The notes under the pieces: model-generated
Told to the model about the DNA's origin: nothing
What the model saw: the letters and a program-made list of their open reading frames with translations, nothing else
Databases searched by the model: none
Made by a program: the position numbers and the translations under genes
Part shown: positions 11,880 to 34,600 of the stretch, in pieces
Position numbering within the stretch: the stretch's first letter is position 1
Layout of the letters: the number at the start of each line of letters is the position of its first letter
NCBI GenBank assembly: GCA_012719135.1
Contig: JAAYAW010000035.1
Coordinates: 3,799-67,798 of the forward strand
Direction of reading: 5' to 3'
Length of the DNA: 64,000 nucleotides
Source: Chloroflexota bacterium
Lineage (GTDB): Bacteria > Chloroflexota > Anaerolineae > UBA1429

Positions 11880-12089
11880 AACCAGAGTATCATGGCGCCC
11901 GAGGCCCCTGTCAAACAGGCCAGGCGGGTGAGGGTGGCGGGGTATCCTACGAACGTCGGATATGTTCTGGCCCAAAAACGTTGCGCAGCCGTATGGAATA
12001 TGGTAAATATACAGACACGGTAGAGTGGTCTATCGGCATTGGCCGGGGCCGCCCCGGGCAGAGTGGCACCAAATGCGAGGAGGCATAGG

Positions 12090-12683: not shown

Positions 12684-12721
12684 TCTGCTGCACTTCCCCG
12701 CATGACCCGACGCTGTGCGGC

Positions 12722-15700: not shown

Positions 15701-16045
15701 GGCCAGGGCCTCGGAGGGTCCTTCCCTGCGCGAGGCCGCCAAAAAGGCATCGATAGCCTCTTCAAAACGGCGTTCCAGGAGATGCGCGTAGCCCCCGTAG
15801 GGTATTCGCCCGGCGGGGGCAGCGGCCAGCCGGCGAGGCAGGTGAAAGCGATAGATGGCATACAGGAAGGCCGTGGCGCGCACGCGCTCAAAGAGATTTG
15901 TGCTGGAGCGCCTAAAGCTATCGAGCACGGCGCACTCCGCCTGGAGCTCTGCCAGGGAGAGCGGGACGCACAGGTCTCGGAGCGACCGATCGCGCACGGC
16001 TGGATCGGGTGACAGGATGGTATCAAGCAGCGCGGAACTAGGCAT
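12722..16045 (-). CDS. Fused sugar-1-kinase (GHMP family) / UDP-sugar pyrophosphorylase (UDPGP/USP-like), ~1107 aa
   Basis: GHMP motif II-like ([22 protein letters not shown]) and motif III-like ([16 protein letters not shown]) in the N-terminal 60%. The C-terminal domain carries the nucleotidyltransferase signature [23 protein letters not shown]. The start at the internal Met (ATG 16043-16045) overlaps the upstream gene stop (16038-16040) by 8 nt. Confidence 0.6.
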
Positions 16046-16895
16046 CGGCACTCTGGTCTGCCTCGCGCGCCGCGAGAAGCTCCAGCAGTTGGGCCAGCAC
16101 CACCTCACGATCCTGGCCGGCAAGGGCGAGGGCGATTTGCGCGGTGAGCAGGCCGTAACGGGCCCCCACATCGTAGCGTCGCCCAACGCTCTCCAGCGCG
16201 AGGTAGCGTTCGTGGCGGGACAACTCGTCCAGGGCGTCCGAAAGGGTCACGCCCTCCTGTTGGGCCTCCAGCCGGTCGCCCAGGATGGCCATGACAAGAG
16301 GCGTCAGCACGTGCATACCAAAGAAGCAGAGATAGTGTCCGGCGCGCAGGCCCGGAACCACCAGGAACTGCTCGGCCTCCGTGGGGGTGGGCTTTTCCAT
16401 GACTCGATCCACCAGGTAGAGGCGGCTGCTGCCCGCCACCCGCTTGCCACCCACACAGCCAAAGTACGGCAGCAGGCTCTCCCGTGAGGCCTGCACGGCG
16501 GAGACGGCGCAATCGTTGCGTTCCGCCATGCGCACGAGGTCCTCGGCGCAGCCGAGCTCGCCCCTGGTGATGGGGAGGTGGTCGCTCACCAGGTGGAGAA
16601 AGGGCTCGTCCCCGGCATACTCGTGGGCGCAGTAGATCGCGTGCCCGTAGCCCAACGGCTCGCTCTGTTCCACGAAGGTGATCCGGCTGAGATAGTCGCC
16701 AACCACCTCGCGATAGGCGACCTCATCCCCGGGGCTGACGACGACACAGACCTGTTCGATCCCGGCACGGAGCGCCTCCTCCACCAGGATCGCCAGAACG
16801 GCCTTCTCCCGGCCGTCCGTATCGATCAGCATCTGCAGTGGAAGCGTGCGCTGCCTGCGCCCGGCCGCGGTGATGATGGCTTTGGTGACGCGCAT
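16038..16895 (-). CDS. Sugar-1-phosphate nucleotidyltransferase (GalU/UTP-glucose-1-phosphate uridylyltransferase-like)
   Basis: 285 aa. N-terminal [17 protein letters not shown] (G-x-G-x-R nucleotidyltransferase loop). Mid-region [16 protein letters not shown] fits the GalU/RmlA fold. Confidence 0.7.
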
Positions 16896-18590: not shown

Positions 18591-18720
18591 AGCACGTCTC
18601 CTACCGAGTTGAGATGGGCGCATTATAGGGCGCAGGAGGCAGGCCCGCCAGCGATAGAGGGCCTTGCCTGGCGGAGGCTCTGTGGTATCCTGCGCATACC
18701 CTGTGAATAGGAGAGCGTGA

Positions 18721-19422
18721 ATGGAGAGAGAAGAGAACCGCTGGATGCCGCCGTCGCCTCACCGCGAGGCGATCGAAGCGGACCTCCGAGCCGGACGGGC
18801 GCGCATCGTGGAGCGCGGCCACAACGTGCCGCCACTCCTCGTCTTTGAGGATGGGGGGGTGATCGAGCTCCCGCGGGTCAGGTTGGCAGAGACGCGCCGG
18901 GGGCTGCAACTGGTCGCTGCTGATGAGCCCGCCACCGGCGGCGAGACGCGCTTTGGCGATGTGTGCGGGACGGTTGACGAGATCCTCGGCACGCTGCGCG
19001 AAGTCGCGCCAGGCGCCGAACTGGATCCCGATGACCTGAATGCGCTCATCGAGGACATTGGCTATATGCTCGCCCGAATGACGAGGCGCAGCCAGCAGTA
19101 CCTGGCGTTTTTCGAGGGCGTGCAGTCCATCGCGGCGACGCTGCTCTCGCTGGAGCGCCCCAATGTCGCTTCGGCACAGGAGCGCCTGGACGCGTTGCGC
19201 AGGGCCCTCTGGGATCCGGGCGAACGGAACGCGGCGCGGCTGGAGGATATCGCCGGTCGGGCCGAGCACGCGCGCGCCCTGGCCCAGAGCCTGGAGGATT
19301 ACCTGGCGCAGTGCAAACTGGCCGCCACGCGTGTGGGCACCCTCTATGGGGAGGTCCGCGGCGGGCGTGCCTGGGCCCTGGCCCCGGATCAGGGCACGCC
19401 AGAGCCGGGATCCAGCGGCTGA
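18721..19422 (+). CDS. Hypothetical protein
   Basis: 233-aa ORF with good GC3. No recognisable motifs. It sits in the divergent intergenic slot opposite the methyltransferase. Confidence 0.45.
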   Translation: MEREENRWMPPSPHREAIEADLRAGRARIVERGHNVPPLLVFEDGGVIELPRVRLAETRRGLQLVAADEPATGGETRFGDVCGTVDEILGTLREVAPGAELDPDDLNALIEDIGYMLARMTRRSQQYLAFFEGVQSIAATLLSLERPNVASAQERLDALRRALWDPGERNAARLEDIAGRAEHARALAQSLEDYLAQCKLAATRVGTLYGEVRGGRAWALAPDQGTPEPGSSG

Positions 19423-19441: not shown

Positions 19442-20536
19442 TCACCCGGCGCCGACGCCCGTGATCTGGGACAGACGCTCAAAGAAGGCTCGCTTGAAGG
19501 GCGTGTTGATGCCCCAGTTCACCGGGGGCGTCTGATAGCCACTGAGGGCGGCCCAGGGCGCATCGTCGCGATAGCGTGGCCGCGGGACATAGTCTTCCCA
19601 TGGATCGGCGCCCTGGCCGTGCCAGCCTTGATCGTAATACCCCCAGGAGACGCCGTGCGTCCAGGCGACCTCCAGGTTGGGCAGAGCCGGGGAGTCCTCG
19701 TTGATGATGATCGGCTTTGGTGCAAGGAAGTACGAGGGCATGCTCTGCACCGCCTCCAGCGCCGCGGCGAGTTGTAGAGGGCGCAGCCCGTTGCCGTGCA
19801 GCAAGACGTAATCCGCCGTACGGACGAGCGAGGGGGGCGGCATCCCGCGGCCCGTGTCTACCTCCGCACCGCCGCCGCTGGTAGAAAACAGCAGACTGGG
19901 GAACTCGGCCTTGAGGGCGCTGAGCATCTCGTGCTGACGCTCGGGGCGAAAGATCGCATAGGGCGTCTGGTCGACGACGACGTCGATCTCATTGGCCAGC
20001 TCGACGAGCACGTTTCTATGGCCGCAGGAAGCCAGGAAGGTGCAGGCCTCCCGGGCCGCGCGCCAGATGGCGTCCGCGTTTGCCATGCGCAGCAGCATCG
20101 TCCAGTAGAAGAAGCCGACGATGGTGACCATGCCCAGGGCGTCGGTGCGCCGGATGACTCGTGCCAGCCGGTCGGCGTAGGCCGGCTTGAGTTCGCCTTC
20201 CGGCGTAAAGCCGTTATTGTCATAATGACGGTTGATCTCGGGGACATAGAGCGGCCCACCGCCCTGCAGGTTGACCGTCACGGCGAGGACTCCATGGTCC
20301 CGCCAGTGGGCGAGGGCGGCACAGAACTCGGCCGTGTTGCGATCCGGATCCCAGGCTCCCGTGTCCGGATAGGCCCAGTTGGCGCTCGTCTGGGGAACCG
20401 CATCGTCAAAGATCGCCTGAACCGCTCGCACGTTGAACAGTAACCCCTCTACCGGGTGCCCGTCGTAGACTCTACCGGCATAAGTCCGCTTGCCATCCAG
20501 ACACACGTATTGGCCGTCAAATGAGACTGTAGTCAT
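19442..20536 (-). CDS. Clan GH-A TIM-barrel glycoside hydrolase (GH5-like), cytoplasmic
   Basis: 364 aa with no signal peptide. Candidate acid/base NE motif in LVELANEID and candidate nucleophile in PIIINEDSP, with spacing typical of a (beta/alpha)8 GH-A enzyme. Confidence 0.45.
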   Translation of the reverse strand: MTTVSFDGQYVCLDGKRTYAGRVYDGHPVEGLLFNVRAVQAIFDDAVPQTSANWAYPDTGAWDPDRNTAEFCAALAHWRDHGVLAVTVNLQGGGPLYVPEINRHYDNNGFTPEGELKPAYADRLARVIRRTDALGMVTIVGFFYWTMLLRMANADAIWRAAREACTFLASCGHRNVLVELANEIDVVVDQTPYAIFRPERQHEMLSALKAEFPSLLFSTSGGGAEVDTGRGMPPPSLVRTADYVLLHGNGLRPLQLAAALEAVQSMPSYFLAPKPIIINEDSPALPNLEVAWTHGVSWGYYDQGWHGQGADPWEDYVPRPRYRDDAPWAALSGYQTPPVNWGINTPFKRAFFERLSQITGVGAG

Positions 20537-20759
20537 ACCGATTCTCCTTCGGTTGCTCTGCCCTCAGCCAACGGATAGTACCGCATGGAAACGGATCCGT
20601 CATCCCTGTGCGCAGGGGCCAGGGGCCGAGCCCTCGCAAGCGGTAGCGTTGCGCCGGCCTTGAGACGATGCCGGCGAGGGGTATTGTTCCCCCGGCGCGC
20701 CCGTGCTATGATTGCGCGAATGAGCTGTGATCGCAACAGGCATCAGTAGAGGAGAACGG

Positions 20760-22097
20760 ATGAGTGACCTGAACGAGGCCGGATGGGCCGAGCGTCTGCG
20801 GCAGCGCATCGAGGATCGCAGCGCGAATGTGTGCGTCATGGGTCTGGGATATGTGGGGCTTCCTCTGGCCGTACTGTTGGGGCAAGCCGGTTTCCACGTG
20901 ACCGGGATCGACCCGGATCGAGAACGCTGTGCGGCGCTCTTGCGCGGTGAGAGCTATGTGGGAGATGTGCCCGCTGATGCCATCGCCGCGCTGACGGCGA
21001 GCGGGCATATGGACGCCTCTGCCGATCCGGAGCCCCTGGCCCGGGCCGATGCCGTCATCATCTGCGTACCGACGCCGCTGAGCAAGTCCAAGGATCCGGA
21101 CATCTCGTACATCGTGGGGGCCGTAGAGAACCTCGCCCGCCACCGGCATCCAGGGATGCTCGTGGTGCTGGAGAGCACCACGTACCCCGGGACCACCGAA
21201 GAGATCCTCATGCCCCGGTTGGCGAACGACGGGTTCGCCATCGGCGAGGACATCTTTGTGGCCTACTCGCCGGAGCGCGTCGATCCCGGAAACCGCAACT
21301 ATAGCATCCGGAACACGCCCAAGGTGATCGGCGGGGCGACGCCCGCCTGCCTGAGTCTGGCGGTGGCCCTCTACGGGAGCATCGTGGAGCAGACGGTGCC
21401 CGTCTCCAGCCCTGCGGCGGCCGAGATGGTCAAGATCCTGGAGAATACCTACCGGGCCGTCAACATCGGCCTGGCCAACGAGATGGCCCAGATCTGCCAG
21501 CGCATCGGTCTGGACGTGTGGGAGGTGATCGCTGCCGCCAGCACCAAGCCCTTTGGTTTCAGTCCCTTTTACCCGGGGCCGGGCCTCGGCGGGCACTGCA
21601 TCCCCATCGATCCGCTCTACCTCACCTGGAAGATGCGGAGTCTGAGCGTGCAGACACGCTTCATCGAGCTGGCCGATGTGGTGAACACCGACATGCCAGC
21701 CTATGTAGTGCGGCGCGTTCAGGATGCTCTGAACGATATCGAGCGGCCTCTCCGCGGGAGCCGTGTGCTCGTTCTCGGCGTCGCCTACAAGCCCGATGTG
21801 GCGGATCTGCGGGAAAGCCCGGCACTGACGATCATCGAGCTCTTGCAGGATCGGGGCGCGCAGGTTCTGTACCATGACCCCTTTGTGCACCAACTCGACC
21901 TGCCCGGCGGAGAGAGGCTGGCCGGGATCGAACTCGCCGAGGAGGACCTGGCGCTCGCGGATTGCGTCCTCGTGCACACCGCACACAGCAGTTACGATTG
22001 GGGTTGGGTGGCACGGAACGCACGCCTCGTCTTTGACACGCGCGGCGTGATCCAACCAGGAGAGGTTGCCAATGGCGCCCTCTACTACCGGCTCTAG
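20760..22097 (+). CDS. Nucleotide-sugar dehydrogenase, UDP-N-acetyl-D-glucosamine/mannosamine 6-dehydrogenase family (WecC/TviB-like)
   Basis: Rossmann motif [16 protein letters not shown], catalytic Cys region ([17 protein letters not shown]), and a UDP-binding C-terminal domain. The start was moved to ATG 20760 (AGAGGAGA RBS). Confidence 0.85.
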
Positions 22098-22845
22098 GTC
22101 CGGCGACCCACGGGCCGAGCGCATCAGCGGCGGTCCGGGGCTCTACATTCGGCGGCAGTCGGGCGGCGTGGGATGGTACGCGCTCGAACAGCTGCTCCAG
22201 AGCCTGGCGGGGTGGATTCCAAGCATCCTCGGGATCGCCGTCCGTGCCGTTCTGTACCGGCTGATGCTGCGCATGGACGGCTGGGCGGCCATCGAGCGCG
22301 GTGTGCGGCTGCGCTATGCGCGCCTGATCCGGCTGGGGGCGGGCAGCTATCTGGATGAGGGTGTGTACGTTCACGCGTGTCCGGGCGGAGTGTCCATTGG
22401 GGCGCGAACGCTGGTGATGCATGGGGCCGTGCTGCATGTGTACAACTTTCGTCAGCTACCGCATGCGGGCATCCATATCGGCCAAGATAGCCTCGTGGGA
22501 GAGTACAGCGTTATCCGGGGGCAGGGCGGCGTCACGCTGGGAGATCGCGTGTACACCTCTCCCCTGGTTCAGATCGTCGCCGTGAACCATGTCTATGATG
22601 ATCCCAGCCGCTCGTTCACGGACCAAGGGTTGACCGCCGAGGGGATCATAATCGAAGACGATGTATGGATCGGGTCAGGTGCGGTGATCACCGATGGGGT
22701 GCGGATCGGCCGCGGCGCGGTAGTCGCCGCCGGCGCAGTGGTGACGAGCGATGTGCCCGCGCACACCGTGGTCGGTGGCGTGCCCGCCCGCGTCCTGCAC
22801 GAGATCGATGGCACGCCCCGTACCGCCGGGAGATCGATCTACTAG
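22072..22845 (+). CDS. Hexapeptide-repeat (left-handed beta-helix) sugar O/N-acetyltransferase
   Basis: Repeating [LIV]-G-x-x-x-x hexapeptides ([52 protein letters not shown]). The ATG at 22072 lies 6 nt after AGGAGAGG and overlaps the dehydrogenase 3' end. Confidence 0.75.
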
Positions 22846-22896
22846 CCCCGCGGGTCACCGCCCGAGGCGTCCGCAACACAGGCAAGGCTGGCATCC

Positions 22897-24144
22897 ATGA
22901 ACACAGCGCAGGAGCGGGATAGCTTACAGGAGCCAAGAACCGCAAGTATGCTTTCGGTGGTGATCCCGGCATACAACGAAGAGCAGGGCCTCGCGGCGAT
23001 CATCGAGCGGGTTCTGGCGGTGCGGCCGGCCCTGGCGCTGGATGGCATCGGGCTGGAACTCCTGGTCGTCGACGACGGCTCGCGGGACGGCACGGCGGAG
23101 ATCGCGAGGCGGTACGCCGACGTGCGCCTCGTCCAGCACAGCACGAACCGCGGGTACGGCGCGGCGCTCAAGACGGGGTTTGCGGCGGCCTGTGGCGAAT
23201 GGCTGGGGTTTATGGACGCGGACGGCACATACCCGCCGGAGGAGCTTCCCGCGTTGTGCGCCGTCCTGTGCACGGGCGACGGAGCGGACCTGGTGGTCGG
23301 CTCGCGACGCTCGGGGCAGAGCAGCGAGATGCCCTTTCTGCGTCGGGTGGGCAACCGGCTATGGAGCGGCCTCGTGTCTACGCTCGGAGGCCGGAGGGTG
23401 CTGGATCCTGCCAGCGGGATGCGCGTGTTCCGCCGGGAGATACTCGCCAGGCTGTATCCGCTGCCCGATGGCCTGAACCTGACGCCGGTGATGAGCACCC
23501 GTGCAATCCACGAGGGGATCCGTCTCGCAGAGATCCCCATTCCCTATCGGGAGCGCCAGGGGCGGTCCAAGCTCAGCGTCGTCAACGATGGGATGCGTTT
23601 CCTTGGTACGATTGTGTGGACGGTTCTCACGTACAACCCGGCGCGGCCACTGGGCTTGCTGGGCGTGGGCCTTTTCTCCCTGGGTGTGCTGGCGGCTCTG
23701 GGGTTGGTCATCGCGCGGTTGGCCGGCATCACGTCCCTGGGGCCTATGGGCGTCCTTGTGGCCTATCTGGCGGCGCTGCTGCCCGTGGTGGGCTTTGACC
23801 TATTTGCACTTGGCGCAACCTTCAACTATGCCGTGTCTCTCTTTCACGCCCGCCCGGTACGGCAGGGGCTCTTTGGCCGGCCCATCTTTGATCCTCCGCT
23901 GGACCGGCATTTCTGGTGGATGGGCCTGCTGGCCGGTGGGGCCGGGATCGCCCTGGGGGCCGCGAGCCTCGTGCTGGGCCTCAACGGCTGGGGCGTTGAG
24001 CGCCTCTGGTTGTACCTTCTCGGTGCCGCGGCCTTGACTATGCTCGGCCTGAACCTGCTCGTGTTCTGGTTGATCATGCGGGTGCTGGAGGAGTTGAGCC
24101 ACCGGCAGGCGGACATCCAGGCCGATCTGGCTTGTGTGCCATGA
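22897..24144 (+). CDS. GT2 family polyprenyl-phosphate glycosyltransferase (GtrB/DPM1/ArnC-like) with C-terminal TM helices
   Basis: SVVIPAYNEE, VVDDGSRDGT and DADGTY (DxD) motifs. Four C-terminal hydrophobic segments, as in GtrB-type Und-P sugar synthases. Confidence 0.8.
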   Translation: MNTAQERDSLQEPRTASMLSVVIPAYNEEQGLAAIIERVLAVRPALALDGIGLELLVVDDGSRDGTAEIARRYADVRLVQHSTNRGYGAALKTGFAAACGEWLGFMDADGTYPPEELPALCAVLCTGDGADLVVGSRRSGQSSEMPFLRRVGNRLWSGLVSTLGGRRVLDPASGMRVFRREILARLYPLPDGLNLTPVMSTRAIHEGIRLAEIPIPYRERQGRSKLSVVNDGMRFLGTIVWTVLTYNPARPLGLLGVGLFSLGVLAALGLVIARLAGITSLGPMGVLVAYLAALLPVVGFDLFALGATFNYAVSLFHARPVRQGLFGRPIFDPPLDRHFWWMGLLAGGAGIALGAASLVLGLNGWGVERLWLYLLGAAALTMLGLNLLVFWLIMRVLEELSHRQADIQADLACVP

Positions 24145-25802
24145 GCGATACCGGCGTTGAGCGGCCTCGAGGGCGGACGGTGCCTCAGCGCGTATTCGCG
24201 GAGACGCCTCCGAACGCGGACGGGCTTGGCATCGCCACAGGCGCCGGCGCGGGGGAGCGCGTGGACATTCTGTTCGTGAACCCGCCCGCGCCCGACCGCG
24301 GGATCTGGATTCGGAGCCAGCACCGCGTCGGGAGGCGGTCACGCGAGGGAATGATCTGGCCGCAGGCCGATCTGGCGCAACTGGCAGCGCTGTTCCCCGA
24401 CAAGCGCGTGGCGATCATCGACGCGATTCCATCGCGCATGACGTGGGCGGCCTTTGCGGAGGAACTCAAGCGCCTGCAGCCCACGTTCTACCTCACCCAG
24501 GTGACGGCGCCGACGCTGGAGAACGACATGTACGGCGCGTTTCTCGCGCGGTCGGGTGGTGCGACCACGATCGCCATGGGGACACACGTCACACCCATGC
24601 CGCTATCCACGCTGGAGGCGTATCCGGCTCTGGACTATTGCCTGGTGGGAGAGCCCGAGCTGACGCTGCGCGAGTTGGTGGATGCCCTCTGCCCTGATGA
24701 AGCGGATCATCTCCGGGCCGTCGCGCCGGATACCGGTGCGGCCCTCGAAGGCCTTCTCGTCGCGTCGGACGCGGGGTGGAGGCCCGTTACGCAGCGCGGA
24801 ACGTCCACCGAGGAGCGCCTGGCGACGATACCCGGACTGGCGTGGCGCCGGAACGGCCAACCTGCTCTGAACGCTCCCCGCGCGCTCATAGAGGACCTGG
24901 ACGCGCTGCCCCTGCCACGGCACGATCTGCTGCCGCTGGCGCGCTACCGGGCGCCGCTCGTATCCGGCGCCTACTCCTTTGTGGTTACCAGCCGCGGATG
25001 CCCCGGCGATTGCCGGTTCTGCATCAAGCACGTCTCATACGGGCGCTCGGTGCGGTTCCGCTCGCCAGAGAATGTGCTGCGGGAGATCGAGATGCTGGCG
25101 GGACTGGGAATCCGCAGCATCCACATGTACGCCGATCTGTTTACCGTGAATCGTGATCACGTGCTGGGCATATGCCAGGGCCTGCTGGACCGCGGACTCA
25201 AGATCCGCTGGACGTGCAACAGCCGGGTCGACTTTGTCGATCCAGAGATGCTCGATCTCATGAAGCGCAGTGGCTGCTGGATGATCTCCTGGGGGATCGA
25301 ATCCGGGGACGTGGAGATGCTCCGGCGGATGCACAAGGGCATCACCCTGGAAGGGGTCCGCCAGGCGCTCGAGTGGTCCCGAAGGGCTCACATCCGCAAC
25401 TGGGGCTACTTTATCATCGGGCTCCCCGGGGAGAGTGAGCGTTCCATACGCCACACAATCGATTTCGCCAAGACTCTGCCCCTGGACCTGGCTCTCTTTC
25501 ACATCGCGGCCCCTCACCCGGGAACACCCTTTTTCTACGAGGTCGTGGACCAGGGATGGTTTCGGCCGGGGACCCGATGGGAACGCGTCGATATGGACCG
25601 CTCCACGGTGCTCGATTATCCGGAGCTGAGCGCCGAGGATCTGGAGGCGTGGGCACGGCGCGCGCTGCGCGAGTGGGCCCTGCGGCCGGGGCCGGTCTGC
25701 ACCTACGGTAGGATGCTGGCCACCAGTCCCTCGCTCTGGAGGGCTGCCTTGGCGATCGGGCTGGAGAGCCTCGGCTGGCTCCGTGGGGCGGGCAGCCGGT
25801 GA
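24141..25802 (+). CDS. B12-binding domain-containing radical SAM protein
   Basis: N-terminal cobalamin-binding Rossmann-like region (DILFVNPP..., VAIID...). Radical SAM CxxxCxxC (SRGCPGDCRFC) followed by an ELP3/TIM-barrel region. Its ATG overlaps the GT2 stop (ATGA). Confidence 0.85.
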   Translation: MSDTGVERPRGRTVPQRVFAETPPNADGLGIATGAGAGERVDILFVNPPAPDRGIWIRSQHRVGRRSREGMIWPQADLAQLAALFPDKRVAIIDAIPSRMTWAAFAEELKRLQPTFYLTQVTAPTLENDMYGAFLARSGGATTIAMGTHVTPMPLSTLEAYPALDYCLVGEPELTLRELVDALCPDEADHLRAVAPDTGAALEGLLVASDAGWRPVTQRGTSTEERLATIPGLAWRRNGQPALNAPRALIEDLDALPLPRHDLLPLARYRAPLVSGAYSFVVTSRGCPGDCRFCIKHVSYGRSVRFRSPENVLREIEMLAGLGIRSIHMYADLFTVNRDHVLGICQGLLDRGLKIRWTCNSRVDFVDPEMLDLMKRSGCWMISWGIESGDVEMLRRMHKGITLEGVRQALEWSRRAHIRNWGYFIIGLPGESERSIRHTIDFAKTLPLDLALFHIAAPHPGTPFFYEVVDQGWFRPGTRWERVDMDRSTVLDYPELSAEDLEAWARRALREWALRPGPVCTYGRMLATSPSLWRAALAIGLESLGWLRGAGSR

Positions 25803-27766
25803 TGCCCACGAGGCGCCTCTCCTGGCGGGATGCCTGGCCAACCCTGCAGGTGGGCTTGGCCCTGGTGGCATGCGGCCTGTGGTATGCCACGGGAGGGGCC
25901 GTCTGGTACCGGGTAACTTCCGTCGGCCTCTGGCCGGCTCTCCTGGTGGTGGCGATGTGGCCGCTGCAGCGTCTGGCCCGAGGCCGTTGGGAACGTCTCC
26001 AGGGCGTGCATCTCTGGTTGGGCATCTTTCTGCTCACCGCTGTCGTGAGCACGGTTGTGGCCTACAACAGGCCGGTCGCCGTAGCCAAGTTGGGGACGGT
26101 CATCGGCGCTGCAGGCCTGGCCCTGGCGCTATCGCATCAGCGGACACGGCGGCAGATCTATCTCTCGCTGGCCCCGCTGGGCCTGGGCCTTGCGGCGCTT
26201 GCGCTCTACTCCCTCGCCGGCAGCGACTGGGATGCTCAGGCTCTCAAGTACCCCGCGCTGGCCGAGGCAGGCCGATCCCTCACAGGATGGATCGCCTGGA
26301 CTCCGGGGCACCGAATCACGCCGAACGTGGCTGGCAGTATGCTGGCAGCGCTGTTGCCCTACGGCGTTGCGCTGGCGGGGCTCGCGCCGTCGCGCTGGCT
26401 GGGCATGCGCCAGCCGGGACCCCAAGCGGCCATCCGAGGCTGTTGGGCCCTTGCGGTGGCGCTCGGCGTATCGGCACTGATCCTCACGGGCTCTCGAGGC
26501 GCCTGGGGCGGTAGCCTGGCGATGGTCGCGGGCTGGGCGTTGTGGCGTTGGCTGGGCCGCCTTGCGCCGCCTGGGCCGGCAGGCTACCGGCGGCGGCTGA
26601 TCGGATTCGGTCTCATGGCCCTGGCGGGCGGCCTCGCTGTGGTCCTGGGAGGCTACCTGGTTCTCGTGCTGACGCTGCCGGGGGCCGCCGCGTTGGCGAA
26701 CCGGATCGATCTGATCACCCGCAGTCTATCCCTGGCGCAGGACTATGCGTATACCGGCGTGGGCCTTGGCCAGTTCCCCATTCCGTATTCGGTGTATACC
26801 CTGCTGATCCATGTGGGGTACATCGTAAACCCCCACAACACGCTTGTGGGGATCCTGGTGGAGCAGGGAGTGCTGGGGATGGCGGCGCTGATCCTCCTCT
26901 GGGTGAGCGCGCTCAGAGCCTTTGTTCGCACCCGCGCGCACGCCAGCCCGGGGCTGGGCATAGTGTTGGAGGCCAGTGTGGCCTCGCTCATGACGATGGT
27001 CGTTCATGGGATGGTGGATTCGGGACTGTACGGCAGCCGGGGGCTTCTGATCATGCTGGTGCCCGTGGGTGTGATCATCGCCTGTGCGCGGCACGTCGAG
27101 TCTGAGACCGCGGCCGCCGAGGGTGAGCGCAGCCCCGAGGCCTCGCGCACGCGAGACCGGACGGCTGTGCCGATCCTGGCGGGGTTGGCTGTCATCCTCC
27201 TGGTGCTCGTGGCCACCGCAGGCCGGCCGCACACAGCCTGGCTCGCCAATCGCGGCGCTCTCGAACAGACACGCCAGGAACTCGCCTTGTACGATCCCGA
27301 GCGATTCGCCGAGCTCTCTTTGGATGACGCGCGCCTGCGCGCAGATCTGGCGGAGGCCGAGCGCTTGCTGGCCGCGGCCGCGCGCCATCCCGGCCACCCC
27401 AGCGCTCCCCGGCGCCTCGCCGCCATCTATCTCTCCAGGAGCCAGTACCCGGACGCACTCGCCGTGCTGAAGGCCTCCTGGGATGCGGGCAGTCGGGATT
27501 CGACGACGCGGCTGTTGTACGGGGATGCGCTCATTGCGGCCGGCGATCCGGCCGGCGCCGCAGCGACCGTGAAGGGTATACGCTGGGCCGCCGAGCGGAT
27601 CGAGGGGCAGGCCTCGTCACGCTACGTGCCGAGGGGAGAGTGGGCTCAGGTCGCTTACGCCTATGAGGCGGTGGCTCGCCTGAACGGCACTGGAGAGGCG
27701 GATCTCGGGCGGATCAATGAGGCACGGCAGCGGGCGGGGCTTGCGCCGCTGGAAGCATTACCATAG
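25799..27766 (+). CDS. O-antigen ligase (Wzy_C) domain membrane protein with C-terminal TPR-like soluble domain
   Basis: About 12 TM segments. Wzy_C signature LTGSRGAWGGSLAMVAGW and a periplasmic loop. A C-terminal ~200-aa Ala/Leu-rich helical repeat region is TPR-like. Its start overlaps the rSAM stop. Confidence 0.7.
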   Translation: MMPTRRLSWRDAWPTLQVGLALVACGLWYATGGAVWYRVTSVGLWPALLVVAMWPLQRLARGRWERLQGVHLWLGIFLLTAVVSTVVAYNRPVAVAKLGTVIGAAGLALALSHQRTRRQIYLSLAPLGLGLAALALYSLAGSDWDAQALKYPALAEAGRSLTGWIAWTPGHRITPNVAGSMLAALLPYGVALAGLAPSRWLGMRQPGPQAAIRGCWALAVALGVSALILTGSRGAWGGSLAMVAGWALWRWLGRLAPPGPAGYRRRLIGFGLMALAGGLAVVLGGYLVLVLTLPGAAALANRIDLITRSLSLAQDYAYTGVGLGQFPIPYSVYTLLIHVGYIVNPHNTLVGILVEQGVLGMAALILLWVSALRAFVRTRAHASPGLGIVLEASVASLMTMVVHGMVDSGLYGSRGLLIMLVPVGVIIACARHVESETAAAEGERSPEASRTRDRTAVPILAGLAVILLVLVATAGRPHTAWLANRGALEQTRQELALYDPERFAELSLDDARLRADLAEAERLLAAAARHPGHPSAPRRLAAIYLSRSQYPDALAVLKASWDAGSRDSTTRLLYGDALIAAGDPAGAAATVKGIRWAAERIEGQASSRYVPRGEWAQVAYAYEAVARLNGTGEADLGRINEARQRAGLAPLEALP

Positions 27767-27804
27767 ACTGCAGACCCATACTGGCAGGGAGTAGAACACG
27801 CAGA

Positions 27805-30800
27805 ATGAGACTCTTGAGGATCACTATCGTTACGTCTGTTATAGTGTCTCTGTTTGCGCTCTGCTGGCCTCTTCGCGGCATGGCGGAGGGGCCTTCGTGG
27901 GGACGCCCCGTAAACCTGTCCCGCTCAGGCGCGGCGTCCGATCCGTCCCTGCTGTACGAAGGCGACCAGACCTACGCCCTCTGGTGGGATAGCTACGATG
28001 GCGTCACCGTGGCCGTGCGAAGCGATGGTGAATGGGGGAATCCTACGCCGGTTCCGATCTCGGACTATCTCTACGATGCCTCCGGCTCGATCCGCATCAA
28101 CGCCACGACCGGCGTATACCTCCGGGATACGATCCGTTCGGGCAGCATCACGGCGGATGGCACCGGGGGTGTGGCGGCCTTTTTCCTCGCGCGTGCCGAG
28201 GGCTCTGGCCCTCTGGCCCTGAGGCAGACGCGAGCTGCGCTGGACACGTTCGATTGGGCAGCGGCACAAACCGTGGTCAGTGCTGCATCGGGGTGGCGGG
28301 CCGTCCCCGGACCCGACGGAACGCTGCACCTTGCGGTGTTCTATACGGGCCGCGATGAAGGGACTCTGCCGGGGGTCTACTACCTTCGCTCGGAGGACGG
28401 CGGCGAAAGCTGGAGCGATATGGTTCTCGTGGCCGAATCGCTCTACGTGCGCCGGGCGACCCCTGAGAAGAGCCATATCTCTCTTTCCGCCGTGGAAGGC
28501 GGGGCGATCTATCTCGCCTGGAACGAGCCCGGCACTGGGCGAGCGCTCTGGAGTTGGAGCCAGGACGGCGGCGACACCTGGAGCCCCTCGCGCCTGGTGG
28601 CCCCAGACGATCCCAAGGCGAGCAACGCGCATCTGGAGAGCCTCGGCGACGGGCGCGTCCTGCTCCTGTGGGAGGGAACCGGTACGGGCGATGCCCCGGC
28701 GCTCTATTCCAGCGTATCGCCCGACGGAGGCAGCAATTGGCCGAAGCCCGATGCGGTGCTGAGCCTGCTGAACGGGGGGGCTGCGGGGTTGGCGCTTCAA
28801 CCTCATCCTGCCGGCGGGCTCTTGCTCGCTGCGGGCGGCGTGGCCGACGGGCCGGCGCTGGCCCGGTTCGGCAAGCTCGGGGAGGAGATAGTGGCGGACG
28901 CCTGGTCCGATTGCGTTACGCTGCCGCACGTAACGGGCGCCGCCGAGCGCCTTCGGGTGGCGAGTGTGGAGCGCTGGCAGGCCGTGGCCGCGGCGGGAGA
29001 GATCATTCTGACGGGGGTGGACCCTTCAGGGGACGTTTGGGCCCTGAGCAGTGCCATCGATACGCTGGAATGGCCTACGGTTGTGGCGCCCACCTGGGAG
29101 GAGGATGCCGATAGTAATGCCGGCCACACCCTCGCTGCAACCGGTGCGGTGGGCCCACCGACGCTGGTTCAGGGGAACGGGCCGGCTCGGCAGGCCTTCT
29201 GGTGGGACTCTGTTGAGGGATTGGTGAGCGCCTATAGCGACGGCGCCGTCTGGTACAGCGCTCAGGCCGCGCGGGCGGAGGCCACGGAGAGCGGTGTTCC
29301 CGGGCCCGTGCCGTTCGGCGCGCAACTGGCGACGAACTCGGCAGGAGACGTGATTGCCTGCTGGATCGCGCGTGAAGGTGCGGCTGAAGGACCGGTCCTG
29401 TGCCGCAGCCAGGCAATCGGCCTCCACCTCTGGGCAGATGCGGCGGTTGTCGCCGAGAGCGCCACGGCTTTCCGACTGCGGGCGGGCGGCGACGGGGCGC
29501 TGCACCTCCTCCTTGCGCGCTCCGCGGAGGCGGAGGAAGCCTCCGCCGGGCTGTACTATCTGACGTACTCTGAGGAGGCAGGAGAATGGAGCGAGCCTGT
29601 CCAGGTTGCGCCGGTTGGGTTGATCGAGGGTAGCGCCCTGTCGGACTCGGATCTGGATGTCGATGCTACCAATGGGCAGCGCCGGGCCGCATGGCTCGAT
29701 CCCATGGCCGGGGCGCTGTTCTACTCCGGCTCGGCAGATGGCGGGGTCACCTGGAGCGCTCCTCTCAACGCCTCGGAGGGTGTGGCAGAGCCGGCTCACC
29801 CGCAGGTAGCCGCCGACGGGGACAACACGATCTATGTGTTCCAGACGGCGGGGAGCGGGTTGCTCCAGACGCGTATCGACGCATCCGGAGGCCTTGTCGA
29901 CGGCCCGAAGAGCATTCTGTCGTCCTACTCAGGAGCGGCGCTCCGCTCCGGCTGGCAGTTGGCCGGGCAGGGAACCGATCGTCTGCTGCTGGTCGTGCCA
30001 GAGTCTCCGGTGGCGGTGGCCATCGCCACCTGGCTCGGCGACGGCTGGAGTGAGCAGGTGGTCCCGCTGAGCGGCGCGGCCAGTAGCACACCGGCGGACG
30101 AGGCGGCGGCCATGGCGGCGCACTATCAAGAGGGCCTCCTATCGATCACCACAGTGAGCGAAGCCGGCCAGGCGGTGCTCTGGGATCTGCCGGCTGCAGC
30201 CTCGGGGTGGGGACAGGAGGAAGGCGAGATCTGGTCTTGGCCCGTCAGGTCGGCTTCGCTGGCCGAAGGGGTGGGACGCCCCGCCGCACAGATCGACGGC
30301 GACCTCCGTGTCCACGTCCTCTGGCACACGGGCTCGCCGTACGGCGACGCGCTTTGGTACGCGCAATGGCTGGATACCAAGTGGAGCGCACCCGTTCAGG
30401 TGGTGCGGCCGGATGAGGGGATCGCCCGCGACCCGGATCTCGCGGTGATCGGCGAGCATCTGCACGCGGTTTGGTCGGCCGGATTCGATGGCGGACCGGA
30501 GGCAACCGTGACGTACACATCGGATGCCTCTGCGGCATCAAGCTGGCCGTTGGGCCGTGCGCTGCCTGGCCCGGTCTCGCCGCGCAATGCGATTGGGGCA
30601 CACCCGGCCCTGACCGCCGATCTGGCCGGCACGGTGCACGCCGTGTATGCTGTGCCGATCAACCAATACCGCGGGATCTACTACACCCAGTCGTCTGACC
30701 GCGGCGAAACGTGGCGCGCCAGCTCGCTGGTCTTTGATGCCGCCGTGGCGGGATGGGCCATGGTGGACGATCCGGCGATCGCCGTCGACCATGACGGGAC

Positions 30801-31611
30801 GCTATACGTCGCCTGGGTGCGGCAGGACCTCGCCGGGATCTCAAGGTCACGCGGGCTGTATGTTGCCCAGTCCGACGATGGAGGCGAACGCTGGAGCGAG
30901 CCGCGGTTCGTCTCTGAGGGGGAATGCGAGAACATCACGCTGGTCCTGGCGGCGGGCGGAGGGCCTCATCTGCTGTGGCAGGAGGCCGGCTCGGAACACG
31001 GCGTCTGGGAGAGCTACAGTTCGGACTCTGGCGCACGTTGGAGCCTCCCATCGCGGGTGCGCGGTTATGCGGCCCTGGAGGGGGCGGCCGGCATCGCAAC
31101 AGACGGCCAGGGGCGTCTGTTCCTGGCGGGCATACAGGCAGAGGATGGCGGCCGGCAGGCCTTGCTTACCGCCAAGTGGGAGCGCAGCACGCAGCAGTGG
31201 ACGATCGATGAGCCGGTGTTGCTCCCACGCGCCGTGACCGAGGCGACCGATGTATCACTGGCGTTGGAGCCCGATGCGGGGCGCCTGGCGGCTATCGTTT
31301 CCGCGCGAGCTCTCTCCGAGGGGGAGGGGGATGAGCCCGTGCTCCTGGCCATGAGTCGGCCGGTCGAACCTCGCGGGGTCGGGCCAGAGTGGCTCGGCGA
31401 CGCTCAGGTGGCGCCCACGACCCAGGCTCAGCCCACGACTATGCCGTCCGTCACGCCACAAGCATCAGTGCCGGCCGAGGCTCCCACTTCGGCGAACGGG
31501 ACGGTCGCCGTCGGACCGATGACGGTCCCGATCCTCTCCATCGGCGGCATCGTCCTGGTGGCTCTCTTGGTGGCGGGTGTGCTTGTGGTGAGGGGGCGGG
31601 CCAGGCTCTAG
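27805..31611 (+). CDS. Large Asp-box (BNR) repeat surface protein, sialidase/glycosidase-like beta-propeller(s), signal peptide + C-terminal TM anchor
   Basis: N-terminal signal peptide (MRLLRITIVTSVIVSLFALCWPLRGMA). At least 8 SxDxGxTW Asp-boxes (SEDGGESWS, SQDGGDTWS, SPDGGSNWP, SADGGVTWS, SSDRGETWR, SDDGGERWS, SSDSGARWS...). C-terminal Thr/Pro/Ala linker, then a hydrophobic helix and the RGRARL tail. Confidence 0.7.
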   Translation: MRLLRITIVTSVIVSLFALCWPLRGMAEGPSWGRPVNLSRSGAASDPSLLYEGDQTYALWWDSYDGVTVAVRSDGEWGNPTPVPISDYLYDASGSIRINATTGVYLRDTIRSGSITADGTGGVAAFFLARAEGSGPLALRQTRAALDTFDWAAAQTVVSAASGWRAVPGPDGTLHLAVFYTGRDEGTLPGVYYLRSEDGGESWSDMVLVAESLYVRRATPEKSHISLSAVEGGAIYLAWNEPGTGRALWSWSQDGGDTWSPSRLVAPDDPKASNAHLESLGDGRVLLLWEGTGTGDAPALYSSVSPDGGSNWPKPDAVLSLLNGGAAGLALQPHPAGGLLLAAGGVADGPALARFGKLGEEIVADAWSDCVTLPHVTGAAERLRVASVERWQAVAAAGEIILTGVDPSGDVWALSSAIDTLEWPTVVAPTWEEDADSNAGHTLAATGAVGPPTLVQGNGPARQAFWWDSVEGLVSAYSDGAVWYSAQAARAEATESGVPGPVPFGAQLATNSAGDVIACWIAREGAAEGPVLCRSQAIGLHLWADAAVVAESATAFRLRAGGDGALHLLLARSAEAEEASAGLYYLTYSEEAGEWSEPVQVAPVGLIEGSALSDSDLDVDATNGQRRAAWLDPMAGALFYSGSADGGVTWSAPLNASEGVAEPAHPQVAADGDNTIYVFQTAGSGLLQTRIDASGGLVDGPKSILSSYSGAALRSGWQLAGQGTDRLLLVVPESPVAVAIATWLGDGWSEQVVPLSGAASSTPADEAAAMAAHYQEGLLSITTVSEAGQAVLWDLPAAASGWGQEEGEIWSWPVRSASLAEGVGRPAAQIDGDLRVHVLWHTGSPYGDALWYAQWLDTKWSAPVQVVRPDEGIARDPDLAVIGEHLHAVWSAGFDGGPEATVTYTSDASAASSWPLGRALPGPVSPRNAIGAHPALTADLAGTVHAVYAVPINQYRGIYYTQSSDRGETWRASSLVFDAAVAGWAMVDDPAIAVDHDGTLYVAWVRQDLAGISRSRGLYVAQSDDGGERWSEPRFVSEGECENITLVLAAGGGPHLLWQEAGSEHGVWESYSSDSGARWSLPSRVRGYAALEGAAGIATDGQGRLFLAGIQAEDGGRQALLTAKWERSTQQWTIDEPVLLPRAVTEATDVSLALEPDAGRLAAIVSARALSEGEGDEPVLLAMSRPVEPRGVGPEWLGDAQVAPTTQAQPTTMPSVTPQASVPAEAPTSANGTVAVGPMTVPILSIGGIVLVALLVAGVLVVRGRARL

Positions 31612-31685
31612 CTGCCGCGCCGAGGTAAAAAAAGGACGAGCGAAGCGAGGGGGGTTGCTCCGCCCGTCCCGTGTCTCCCGCCTGG

Positions 31686-34600
31686 CTACGGGCGGAAGGT
31701 TATGGGCATCATCAAGTGGTAGTCGAACTGCTGCGCTTCGACTTTAAAGCTCCCGACGGTAGACCAGGGCCCCTCAGAGGTGCAGCCGCTCTCTGTGCAG
31801 ACGGCGCGGACGCGCCAGAAGTAGTCACCCGCCGGCGCGTGGCTGGCCAGTCGCATGCTCGTGCGTACGGTCGTGGTATCCATCGCCAGCGAGCTGAGCG
31901 AGGCGTCCGAGTAGATCTCCACCTCATAGTAGGAAGCGTTAGCGACCGTCTGCCACGCGAGCTCGGGCTCTTCGTTATAGCCAAAGGTTGTTGCAGCCAG
32001 CGGCGCGACCAGCGATACGGCTGCAGGCAACGGGCAGCTGAGCGTGGTGAAGGACCACCAGGGGCCCGCAGTGGGGCCGTTCAGCCCGACGGAGACGACC
32101 TGCCATTCGTAGACTGTAGCCTCGACCAATTCACCCGGATAACAGCTGGCAGAGCTCAGGTTGGTGCATACGCGTGTCCCCGAGCCGGACCCGCCGGTGC
32201 GCAGATATACGTCGTAGGTTACGTCCTCACCCGGGCAGGTGTGCCCGCCGCACCAGCTCAAAGTGACATCCACTGCCACGCCTGTGGCATCGTCTGCCGG
32301 GGTAGGGTCATACGGAACTGTTGGCGGCACGGTACAGGGCAACTGATCCGTAGTGAACTGCCAGAGGGGCCCGGTGGTGCTGCCCGCCGCGCTGGTCGCC
32401 ACGACCTGCCAGGTATAGGTCTCTCCACCGATCAACCCGCCAGGATTACACGTTGTATCAGAGCCTGAACAGACGAGAGTAGAGGCGCTGCCGCCGGTCC
32501 CCAGGTAGACCTCGTACGTGACGGTCTCGCTCAAGCAGGTGTGCCCCCCAGTCCAGGACAGCGCGCTATCGACGCTCACAGCCTGCGCCGCGTCGGCGGG
32601 GCTGGGCGAAGTGGGTGTGTAGGGCGCCACGGCGCAAGGATCGCTGGAGCCCATGCTCGAGAGGGAGAGCGATGGATCGCCGTACAGGTTGGCGCCCAGA
32701 AGGTTCATCCAGAACCCGCCCGTGGAGTAGAGTGCGCTGTAGGCCCGGAAGTAGGCCAGGGCATCCCCGATCGCGTCGCCATTGGCCGCCAGCCGCTCGC
32801 TGACCCGGTAGCCGATGGAGGCATTGTCCGCCCAACCTGCACCGGTCTTGGGAGTCCAGGCGCCCGTCATGTACCAGCTTAGACGCGAGGAGCTGATGGT
32901 GCCCACCGAGCCGTTCACCAGGAGCCGGTATCCGAGGTTGTCCAGACGCTCCGGTTGCCCGTTCAGGCAGGCGACCTGTACGACAAAGGATGGCCGATCG
33001 TTACTGAGCTGGTAGGTGTCACCCGAACTGAGAAACGTGGGTGAACTGGTCTCCTGCGAGTACTGGGTGATGCGGTCCGCCCGCGTGCTGTCGTTGACCC
33101 AGACGCGCCTGTAGGCCCCCATGTAGTTGCCGTGTCCCCACCAGGTCACGAGGCCGTAGCCTTGGTTCCACGCGCTGATCATATTCGCCGTGCTGAGGGC
33201 GGCATTGGTTAATGTCAACGGGTAGGCTGACCCATCCCCATAGATGCCAGACTTTTCGTAGAGTGTATACGCATCCAGGCTGGCCTCCGCGAGCATGGAT
33301 TTCACGGCCTCGCCCCAGTCATCGCCGTAGGTGCGCTGGCTGAGCTGGTAATCGGCCGTGCCATCGTTGTTATTATCCTGGGGGCCGTGGTTAGAGATGG
33401 CCGCGGCGATGATGGCGCGCTGGCGCCAGGACAGGTCGCCAGTGGCGCTGGCATAGGCCACGGAGCGGGCCAGGATCGCATCCAGATCGGCAAAGGTGCC
33501 GTAGAAGGGAATCCGGCCCACGGTAACCTCGGGCAGCCGGTCAATGCCGCCTGTGCCGATATCGGTGAGTTCGCCATAGGTACCGTTGCCGTTGAGATCC
33601 CAGGTGCCACTCAGGTCCGAGTAGAACATGTCCGTGGGAGTGCTCTGGTACGGGTTCGTGAGCTTCATCGGCACGCTGGTCGCCGAGCTAAAGGCCGTGG
33701 GATCGGGATTGCCCACGAGGAGCACATAGAGGATCCCCTCGGCGGCATAGTGCGCCTGGAGCCAGCTGCGGATGTTGTTGGCGCGGGCATCGGCGGTTGA
33801 CCCAGATAGATACGTGGTTGCCGTGTCAGCCGCGCCCTCCGTGACGACCTTGACGGTGTACCCGTTGGCCTGTTTGTTGGCGACGAACGCAGCGAGTTGC
33901 GCACTGCCATCGCGGATGGACGCCGTGGTGATGATCACATAGTCGTTCGTCGCAGCGGCCTCAGGCCCGTCCGGCAGGGTACCCCGGCCACCGGCCAGCG
34001 GCGCCTGCGGGTAAAAGGCGGTGCGATCCTCAGCGTTCACCAGTTGCGGGGCCAGCATGTCCCAGGCCACTCGCTCAGCGGCGTCGGCCTGTATAACAGA
34101 ACGAAGCTCCTGGCTGAAGGTCACCAACGCGGAGGCGTCGGCGCTCTGCCGCAGCGTGCCCTGAACGGGGTTGTAGGACAGGGGCCAGTAGGAGAGGGTG
34201 ACGACGCGGTAGCCGCGTTGCTCGCCGATCGATTCGATCGTGACGGGATCGGACGGCCAGAAGGCGTCCGCCTCGTAGATGGCCCTGAGTCCGCCTTCGG
34301 CAAGATCGTCCGCCTGCAGTCCGTTCCAGTTCTCCTGCGCCATCTCGTCGCTGGAGATCAGCGGTCCGGCGGGCGGCACAAAGATCGACCCGCCCAGGTC
34401 GGCCGACCCAGATGCCTCAAAGGAGACCGCCACAGAACCAAGGTCTGCGACGGAGGGCAACAGCACCTGCAGTGTTCGCACTGGAAGGCGCGGCTCCCCC
34501 GGGCGCGCATTCAGATCGTATCCCGGAAGCGACAGAGCCTCTTCCATCGGCAGGCTCAGGTCCGGGCTCGCCGCCATCGGCAGATCCACGCGGATGGCAC

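Follow-up and report, generated by a model that had tools for sequence, protein, structure and literature searches.

We analysed a 64,000-nt stretch of a contig (JAAYAW010000035.1) from a Chloroflexota bacterium, which is called the window below and has a GC content of 62-68%. At positions 20760-31611 of the window lie six co-directional open reading frames (ORFs) of the plus strand, g1 to g6, which form a candidate surface-glycosylation operon. GC content by codon position was of the coding type in these ORFs (0.78-0.82 at the third position). The predicted products are a nucleotide-sugar dehydrogenase (g1), an acyltransferase (g2), a glycosyltransferase of family 2 (GT2; g3), a radical S-adenosylmethionine (radical-SAM) enzyme (g4), a membrane protein with a Wzy_C domain and tetratricopeptide repeats (TPR; g5), and a secreted protein with BNR/Asp-box repeats (g6). 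Profile matches upheld the domain assignments that a preliminary description of this DNA had proposed for all six genes. The features of the window are listed in Table 1, where TM stands for transmembrane and where g2, g3 and g4 are marked as the trio.

Table 1. Coordinates of the candidate operon, its flanking elements and other features of the window.
Feature	Position	Strand	Basis or remark
Promoter-like site	20660..20687	+	TTGAGA and TATTGT spaced by 16 nt; 5' of g1, in a divergent intergenic region of 223 nt
g1, NDP-sugar 6-dehydrogenase (UDP-ManNAc/HexNAc dehydrogenase-like)	20760..22097	+	TIGR03026, Cap5O
g2, hexapeptide (left-handed beta-helix) acyltransferase; trio gene 1	22072..22845	+	maltose/galactoside O-acetyltransferase/WcaF type
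g3, GT2 of ArnC/DPMS/AglJ/GtrB type with four C-terminal TM helices; trio gene 2	22897..24144	+	domain and structure matches
g4, radical-SAM enzyme with N-terminal Rossmann/B12-like domain and CxxxCxxC; trio gene 3	24141..25802	+	domain matches
g5, 13-TM WaaL-fold Wzy_C protein with extracytoplasmic C-terminal TPR (residues ~477-655)	25799..27766	+	profile, model
g6, 1268-aa secreted BNR/Asp-box multi-propeller protein with C-terminal TM anchor	27805..31611	+	BNR_2, motifs
Convergent 1012-aa secreted peptidase, family C25	31686..34724	-	Peptidase_C25 125 bits
Serpin	1312-2715
ATP:corrinoid adenosyltransferase (CobA/BtuR)	8616-9470	-	beside an iron-containing alcohol dehydrogenase
Weak Polysacc_synt (Wzx-like) ORF, 10-TM	10494-11975	-	25.8 bits, cut-off 28.2
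1154-aa fucokinase-like + UDPGP protein	12722-16186	-
GalU-like nucleotidyltransferase	16038-16895	-
PKMT-type methyltransferase with regulatory domain	16995-18623	-	syntenic in L081
ORF without family match	18721-19422	+	syntenic in L081
ORF without family match	19442-20536	-	syntenic in L081
Glycoside hydrolase region	36572-60000		also a major facilitator superfamily (MFS) transporter
Small radical-SAM/ferredoxin protein	45579-46544		within the glycoside hydrolase region

The genes were tightly packed. A GAGGAG-type ribosome-binding site preceded g1, and the most likely start of g2 was the ATG at 22072, 7 nt downstream of AGGAGAGG, giving a 26-nt overlap between g1 and g2. The genes g3 and g4 shared an ATGA overlap (24141-24144), and g4 and g5 a GTGA overlap (25799-25802) with an in-frame ATG at 25802. 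Gaps or overlaps of 1-30 nt had been described among the first five genes, and both 4-nt overlaps stood, but the gap between g2 and g3 was 51 nt; the gap between g5 and g6, given earlier as 39 nt, read 38 nt from the sequence. The promoter-like site upstream of g1 was the only sigma-70-like match in 20300-32000, a count not above that in shuffled sequence, so that its support is positional. No cobalamin or other riboswitch was detected in the 5' leader, as no Rfam match was obtained anywhere in the window. The six-gene arrangement is more than chance, because one related locus (L081, 72% protein identity) reproduced it whole, both 4-nt overlaps and the convergent C25 peptidase included, and because the core order recurred in dozens of genomes.

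Conservation was analysed by scanning one genome per species with the pattern of a basic insert in g4 as the query, and more than 582 genomes with a g4 relative were found. The best 80 of these (55-74% identity) were compared by tblastn of the window proteins; 64 loci had enough upstream sequence, 37 were well-flanked for counts of the other genes, and 35 were well-flanked for the context count. Most of the 80 loci belonged to Anaerolineae, and others came from Acidobacteriota and Coleofasciculaceae cyanobacteria; g4 itself has an identical protein annotated in a Chloroflexota metagenome-assembled genome. In Chloroflexota, Acidobacteriota and Cyanobacteria alike, both the acetyltransferase and the GT2 gene lay upstream of the radical-SAM gene, in 57 of the 64 loci. 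Counted singly, the GT2 was upstream in 61 and the acetyltransferase in 59, at 50-76% identity. The stop codon of the GT2 gene typically lay about 100-200 nt before the conserved residue 41 of the radical-SAM enzyme, indicating short or no gaps between the two genes. The linkage was also seen in the reverse direction. When four GT2 homologues were picked only for their long contigs, the radical-SAM gene was directly downstream in all four, and the acetyltransferase was upstream in all four, directly in three and with a Wzy_C/TPR gene and a response regulator gene intervening in the fourth (L086). A Wzy_C/TPR protein and a BNR_2 protein were present in three of these four loci.

The preliminary description had taken GT2, radical-SAM enzyme and Wzy_C protein as a trio. 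The link between the first two is confirmed by these counts, but the conserved third partner was the acetyltransferase; the Wzy_C/TPR protein was found in only 16-19 of the 37 well-flanked loci, the number varying with the bit-score threshold. The robust unit is the acetyltransferase-GT2-radical-SAM trio, to which the Wzy_C/TPR-BNR pair is often added, mostly in Anaerolineae. In this clade the pair did travel with the GT2 and radical-SAM genes, as had been proposed, sometimes in a self-contained cassette (L081, L083 and L085).

In g3, the GT2 catalytic domain was clear (PF00535, 116 bits; cut-off 23). Its top curated matches were AglJ (125 bits, cut-off 325), Dol-P-hexose transferase (107 bits) and ArnC (92 bits, cut-off 529), followed by PpgS (64 bits, cut-off 370) and PgfS (55 bits, cut-off 500); no score reached the equivalog level. 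The structure of ArnC (9bhc, chain residues 9-310) aligned to residues 18-327 of g3, through the membrane-proximal region, and PfDPMS (5mlz) was matched with E 6e-20. Four hydrophobic TM helices (254-272, 286-304, 344-362 and 375-393) were found, as in archaeal DPMS, and the Pfam model GtrA_DPMS_TM gave no match on this TM domain. The hopanoid-associated HpnB scored 25 bits, and no HpnI-family model was among the matches. Judged by this homology, g3 is a predicted polyprenyl-phosphate GT2 of the ArnC/GtrB/DPMS/AglJ class.

The dehydrogenase g1 scored 427 bits with TIGR03026 (cut-off 190), and its nearest solved structure was the UDP-ManNAc dehydrogenase Cap5O (3ojl, E 3e-66). A dehydrogenase of this type occurred in 3 of the 37 well-flanked loci, and also in L081. 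It had been listed as a member of the operon; g1 is an accessory sugar-supply gene, shared by the closest relatives only.

The radical-SAM core of g4 was recognized with 93 bits (PF04055), and the three cysteines of its CxxxCxxC motif (C287, C291 and C294) were invariant in 22 sequences. A B12-binding match (PF02310) at E<0.01 was obtained for 18 of 22 g4 relatives (best E 2.7e-7). No curated family matched g4 above its cut-off. The nearest was HpnJ (TIGR03471, 183 bits against 577.6), which aligned to the core only (residues 224-522), followed by ApyD (142 bits), AprD4 (NF033070, 128 bits against 500), MCR glutamine methylase (126 bits) and BchE (118 bits). Methylase families scored lower: PhpK 114 bits, HpnR 69, KedN5 41 and TsrM-type 29. 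The B12-domain radical-SAM family TIGR04295 (B12_rSAM_oligo), whose members occur in oligosaccharide-biosynthesis contexts, gave 59 bits (cut-off 400), placing g4 outside that family. The nearest solved structure was AprD4, both by sequence (125 bits) and by fold (E 2.8e-24, TM-score 0.66), and the next fold matches of the predicted model were the B12-dependent enzymes MgmA/QCMT, TsrM, OxsB, TokK and CysS.

AprD4, a 1,2-diol dehydratase acting on a sugar, binds no cobalamin (PMC12931638). HpnJ was proposed to contract the glucosamine ring which the GT2 HpnI puts on a hopanoid, and calditol synthase is a second case of such chemistry (PMC13459092). Since the substrate of both HpnJ and AprD4 is a hexosamine ring carried by an aglycone, an action of g4 on the lipid-linked product of the GT2 would fit. 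With these two as the nearest relatives, cobalamin-dependent C-methylation by g4 would be no more likely than dehydration (deoxygenation) or ring rearrangement. The earlier view of g4 as a C-methylase of Fom3/GenK type is not the best reading in light of these scores, and C-methylation becomes one option among several.

Other identities were considered for g4. No HemN-like family was among its matches, and this identity was rejected. A peptide-modifying radical-SAM enzyme, as the ApyD and QCMT matches might suggest, was rejected as the principal reading, because its gene accompanies those of a GT2 and an acetyltransferase in glycan loci, and because half of the loci lack a BNR gene. One long relative of 772 aa (P0099) was considered as a possible GT2-radical-SAM fusion; its extra length proved to be a low-complexity, EGS/VEG-rich, repeat-like insertion of about 230 residues in the inter-domain linker. 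Large insertions are thus tolerated in this linker, which joins the N-terminal domain to the radical-SAM core.

Two further observations concern g4. Residues 47-75 (24279-24365) form a near-invariant basic insert, NPPAPDxxIWIRSQHRVGRRSREGxIWPQ, which was predicted with low confidence by AlphaFold and may form a loop that binds phosphate, lipid or the membrane. The window also contains a CobA/BtuR-type adenosyltransferase gene some 12 kb upstream of g4 (Table 1). This gene indicates that the organism handles corrinoids, with no tie to the operon established.

The Wzy_C domain of g5 was matched by PF04932 with 49-50 bits (cut-off 31.7), and its C-terminal part by a consensus TPR in a profile search (E 8e-31). 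In a single-sequence search g5 found no match among PDB sequences, and the profile search was dominated by TPR proteins. With 28 homologues as input, AlphaFold gave a confident model of g5, whose pLDDT was 88. Its top Foldseek match was WaaL (7tpg, probability 1.0, target-normalised TM-score 0.53), and the C-terminal part matched TPR arrays. The positive-inside rule applied to the modelled helices predicted an N-in topology with 13 TM helices, placing the TPR domain, the conserved loops and all invariant polar residues on the outer side.

Residues N176, R233, R302, G320, G322, Y333, H346, N347, H403, D407 and R414 were invariant in g5. An invariant histidine is typical of ligases and O-oligosaccharyltransferases and less so of Wzy polymerases. 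WaaL carries R215/R288/H338 and PglL R224/R298/H349, and G316/G318 and H400/E404 were reported as specific to PglL (PMC3643930). The Arg/Arg/His spacing of g5 resembles that of WaaL and PglL, and its GxG and H...acidic motifs are like the PglL-specific ones, a likeness of spacing and not of alignment. The combination of Wzy_C with a C-terminal TPR domain is the architecture of WsfB and PglL (PMC2943079), and pglL genes commonly adjoin the genes of their targets (PMC3643930). As modelled, g5 is most plausibly a ligase or O-oligosaccharyltransferase-like enzyme, PglL/WsfB-like, with a non-lipopolysaccharide acceptor. To our knowledge, Chloroflexota are generally reported to lack lipopolysaccharide (LPS), so that the role of a classical lipid A ligase is unlikely.

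The protein encoded by g6 gave 83 bits with BNR_2 (PF13088) and contained seven SxDxGxxW Asp-boxes. Residues 3-21 form a hydrophobic, signal-like segment, and the C-terminal TM helix (1243-1261) is followed by RGRARL. It had been described as a secreted, anchored, Thr/Ser/Pro-rich propeller protein. Secretion and anchoring agree with these segments, but only a Pro/Thr-rich stalk at about 1200-1240, directly before the anchor, has such a composition, not the whole protein. Pro/Thr-rich stalks are O-glycosylated in other monoderm surface proteins, and g6 is a candidate acceptor or partner of g5 by its sequence features. The tail (31380-31611) was shared by homologues in L001, L010-L013, L018-L020 and L025 as a Pro/Thr linker, the motif (L/V)GP(L/I)(T/S)(L/V)P, a TM helix and an Arg/Lys cluster. 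The g6 orthologue of L081 carries a LysM domain.

The tail of g6 resembles a C-terminal sorting signal such as PEP-CTERM or LPXTG, and no other ORF of the window has such a tail; the NCBIfam sorting-domain models gave no match on it at E up to 1. The convergent peptidase belongs to the gingipain/PorU family and was syntenic only in L001-L003 and L081, and its score with the PorU/type IX secretion sortase model (15 bits) was far below the cut-off. Whether it belongs to the system is uncertain. In type IX secretion PorU acts as the sortase, and a processing of the BNR tail by the C25 peptidase would be speculation.

For the genomic context, all ORFs of the 80 loci were clustered and representatives were annotated. 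Self-contained cassettes were found in seven loci, and in the window, L081, L083 and L085. Those in L083 and L085 have the order acetyltransferase-GT2-radical-SAM-Wzy/TPR-(NusG)-BNR, with unrelated housekeeping genes on either side. In such cassettes the counterpart of g3 is the sole glycosyltransferase, and that of g5 is the sole candidate extracytoplasmic transferase. Likewise, no phosphoglycosyltransferase (PGT), family 4 glycosyltransferase (GT4), Wzm/Wzt or Wzz was found in the window.

Based on these results, we propose that the locus is a surface-glycosylation operon built around a conserved three-enzyme module for tailoring a lipid-linked sugar, joined here by a PglL/WsfB-like ligase and by an anchored surface protein with a stalk. 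We give this proposal about an even chance of being right. On the cytoplasmic face, g3 would transfer one sugar from a nucleotide sugar to polyprenyl phosphate, its class being assigned by homology and its donor and acceptor by extension from that class. In this clade, g1 might supply a uronic acid of UDP-HexNAc. The soluble g4, translationally coupled to g3, would abstract a hydrogen from the lipid-linked sugar and remodel its ring, and g2 would acylate it. The tailored sugar would then be flipped and used outside the membrane, where g5 may ligate a glycan to a non-LPS acceptor, most plausibly the Pro/Thr stalk of g6 or an adjacent wall polymer. The donor of g5 could be the product of g3 and g4 itself or a diphosphate-linked glycan that is made elsewhere and carries the tailored sugar. 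The self-contained cassettes favour the direct hand-off, which would need a WaaL-fold enzyme that accepts a monophosphate-linked monosaccharide. In its most specific form, an AprD4/HpnJ-like radical-SAM enzyme would remodel the polyprenyl-monophosphate sugar (deoxygenation, carbocycle contraction or C-alkylation), the left-handed beta-helix enzyme would acetylate it, and the Wzy_C-TPR protein would O-glycosylate the BNR stalk directly; we regard this full sequence of steps as improbable.

Several observations weigh against the proposed operon. Enzymes of WaaL/PglL type are known to use polyprenyl-diphosphate donors, and a GT2 of ArnC/DPMS type makes a monophosphate-linked sugar; we know of no WaaL/PglL enzyme with a monophosphate donor. 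Neither PglL_A nor Wzy_C_2 of Pfam matched g5, even at E up to 10, and no GtrA-type flippase or GT-C transferase was found among the membrane proteins of the window. The predicted model of g4 had a moderate pLDDT of 72, and its own B12-binding match (21-24 bits) stayed below the gathering score of 32.1. Besides the incomplete presence of the Wzy_C/TPR protein, a BNR protein occurred in 17-18 of the 37 well-flanked loci. The two were associated with each other, both being present in 13 loci, only the Wzy/TPR protein in 6, only the BNR protein in 5 and neither in 13 (Fisher p = 0.02, uncorrected for phylogeny).

The context of the related loci weighs in the same direction. At least one polysaccharide-assembly gene was present in 28 of the 35 well-flanked loci, and context genes included those for WbaP-like PGTs, GT4 enzymes, Wzm/Wzt, Wzz/BY-kinases and the heptose pathway (GHMP kinase, SIS), and further AsnB, NusG-like antiterminators and LuxR regulators. 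The preliminary description had proposed a dedicated system, and this is not supported for most related loci, which are ordinary polysaccharide-assembly clusters. With this context, the trio may be one tailoring step of larger glycans, and g5 a conventional polymerase or ligase. A PMT_2 (GT-C) gene was moreover found beside the trio in L074 (between GT2 and radical-SAM genes), L013 (after Wzy/TPR), L050, L052 and L071, and PMT_2 would be the textbook user of a monophosphate donor.

These findings lead to the best supported of the alternatives, in which the locus is a conventional one for an exopolysaccharide (EPS), a capsule or a secondary wall polymer. In that case g5 would act as a Wzy polymerase or ligase on undecaprenyl-diphosphate-linked repeat units that are put together elsewhere, the trio would independently make a Gtr/Arn-like side branch with its GT-C transferase encoded elsewhere, and the BNR protein would process glycans as a hydrolase instead of serving as acceptor. 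Apart from the 28 loci with a PGT, GT4, Wzm/Wzt, Wzz/BY-kinase or heptose genes and the five with PMT_2, it agrees with the acidobacterial loci, where the Wzy_C protein lacks the TPR domain, with the Wzz/BY-kinase genes beside Wzy/TPR in L035 and L037, and with the weak Wzx-like gene upstream (Table 1). BNR_2 is a sialidase-type fold, g6 had weak local matches to PDB sialidases (23 bits), and BNR hydrolases occur in many EPS operons. However, the window and several relatives are self-contained, without a PGT or any other glycosyltransferase, and the window has no Wzz. The stalk and anchor that the BNR protein shares with its homologues, and the TPR domain fused to Wzy_C in g5, agree with an acceptor relation, and the invariant H346 and H403 of g5 are, partly on published comparisons (PMC3643930), like those of ligases and O-oligosaccharyltransferases. 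We consider a conventional locus a serious rival to the glycosylation operon, though on the whole rather unlikely.

A different chemistry within the operon was the one first suggested, in which g4 is a cobalamin-dependent C-methyltransferase (Fom3/GenK-like) acting on an undecaprenyl-phosphate sugar, and g5 transfers the monosaccharide directly. The B12-binding matches found for 18 of 22 relatives, the fold matches to MgmA/QCMT, TsrM, TokK and CysS and the corrinoid adenosyltransferase gene 12 kb upstream are consistent with it, and the majority of the characterised class-B radical-SAM enzymes are methylases (PMC12931638). Its difficulty is that the best matches of g4, HpnJ and AprD4, are not methylases, that AprD4 works without cobalamin (PMC12931638), and that methylase families score far lower and the B12 match in the window is sub-threshold. 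The direct transfer meets the donor problem noted above for WaaL and PglL. Methylation followed by direct transfer is quite unlikely on this balance.

Least probable of all, and by our estimate very unlikely, is that the GT2 and the radical-SAM enzyme make a membrane glycolipid head group with a carbocyclic or rearranged sugar, and no glycan donor, while the Wzy_C and BNR proteins serve unrelated envelope functions: HpnJ was the top curated family, and in HpnI/HpnJ and calditol synthase a hexose put on a lipid by a glycosyltransferase has its ring contracted by a radical-SAM enzyme (PMC13459092), but the GT2 here is polyprenyl-phosphate-like with only 25 bits for HpnB and no HpnI-family match, and neither the window, in which no hpn or shc gene was found, nor the related loci contain hopanoid or lipid-synthesis genes, the context being glycan assembly and export.

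The proposed operon shares parts with several known systems. The three-component systems of extracytoplasmic glycan modification (GtrA/GtrB/GtrC, ArnC/ArnE-F/ArnT and the streptococcal GacI-GacL) likewise have a GT2 with C-terminal TM helices that presumably puts a single sugar on polyprenyl phosphate, and in the Arn pathway ArnD tailors the lipid-linked sugar before flipping. The locus differs from them in that a radical-SAM enzyme and a left-handed beta-helix acetyltransferase would do the tailoring, and in that the membrane enzyme is of Wzy_C/WaaL type. AglJ, which led the curated matches of g3, belongs to N-glycosylation in Haloferax. There dolichol monophosphate bears the glycan during both its assembly and its transfer, which sets a precedent for an oligosaccharyltransferase supplied by a monophosphate donor; that system is archaeal, and its transferase AglB belongs to the STT3 family, not to Wzy_C. 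HpnI/HpnK/HpnJ and the calditol synthase Cds resemble the trio in that a radical-SAM enzyme with a B12-like domain remodels the ring of an amino-hexose after a GT2 has put it on a lipid (PMC13459092), but the GT2 here is ArnC/DPMS-like, an acetyltransferase takes the place of the deacetylase, and the setting is one of glycans without hopanoid genes. AprD4, which works with AprD3, has a Rossmann-like N-terminal domain and acts on an aglycone-attached glucosamine ring; its substrate is a soluble aminoglycoside of apramycin biosynthesis, unlike the one proposed for g4, and no AprD3-like reductase gene adjoins g4. On the side of g5, the protein O-oligosaccharyltransferases PglL of Neisseria, PilO of Pseudomonas, and WsfB of Paenibacillus and WsaB of Geobacillus (both from S-layer glycan clusters) are similar in their Wzy_C domain, with a C-terminal TPR in WsfB and PglL, and in the position of the gene beside a plausible secreted target, and some related loci with a PGT and Wzm/Wzt are like S-layer glycan clusters. 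The candidate target here is a BNR multi-propeller protein instead of a pilin or S-layer protein, and the window has no PGT.

Genes around the operon and its relatives were also annotated. A NusG-family paralogue lies between the Wzy_C/TPR and BNR genes in L083 (12999-13544) and L085 (12983-13525), and elsewhere upstream of a PGT gene. It is reminiscent of UpxY and LoaP, the operon-specific antiterminators of polysaccharide loci. The minus-strand genes at 10494-16895 of the window may supply or export a glycan, and they are not conserved beside the trio elsewhere. The three ORFs between these genes and g1 were syntenic in L081. Downstream, the region from 36572 to 60000 encodes glycoside hydrolases (GH) of the types GH2, GH127-like (two), GH35/42-like with DUF5597, GHL6/GH42 and GH3, a set consistent with a polysaccharide-degrading lifestyle.

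Full-text searches for the combination of genes found no description of the module, in agreement with the earlier statement that the pathway is not a described one. The acetyltransferase-GT2-radical-SAM module appears to be undescribed, and the operon as proposed would be a variation on three-component glycan modification, HpnI/HpnJ remodelling and Wzy_C O-glycosylation. To the best of our knowledge, radical-SAM chemistry on sugars bound to a carrier lipid is known only for head groups of membrane lipids (HpnJ and calditol synthase), not for glycan donors.

The trio is present at 55-75% identity over Chloroflexota, Acidobacteriota and Cyanobacteria, with g4 relatives in more than 582 species, which points to an envelope sugar, common but not yet characterised, in bacteria that abound in the environment and whose surfaces are little understood. 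Being short and self-contained, the cassettes lend themselves to heterologous reconstitution, which could reveal the sugar, the use of a monophosphate donor by a WaaL/PglL fold, and a glycoprotein in Anaerolineae. If the full sequence of steps, from remodelling to direct transfer, is true, the locus would be a self-contained five-gene cassette for protein glycosylation in which the WaaL/PglL fold uses a new type of donor and the sugar is new as well. New O-oligosaccharyltransferases and sugars would be of practical interest for glycoengineering.

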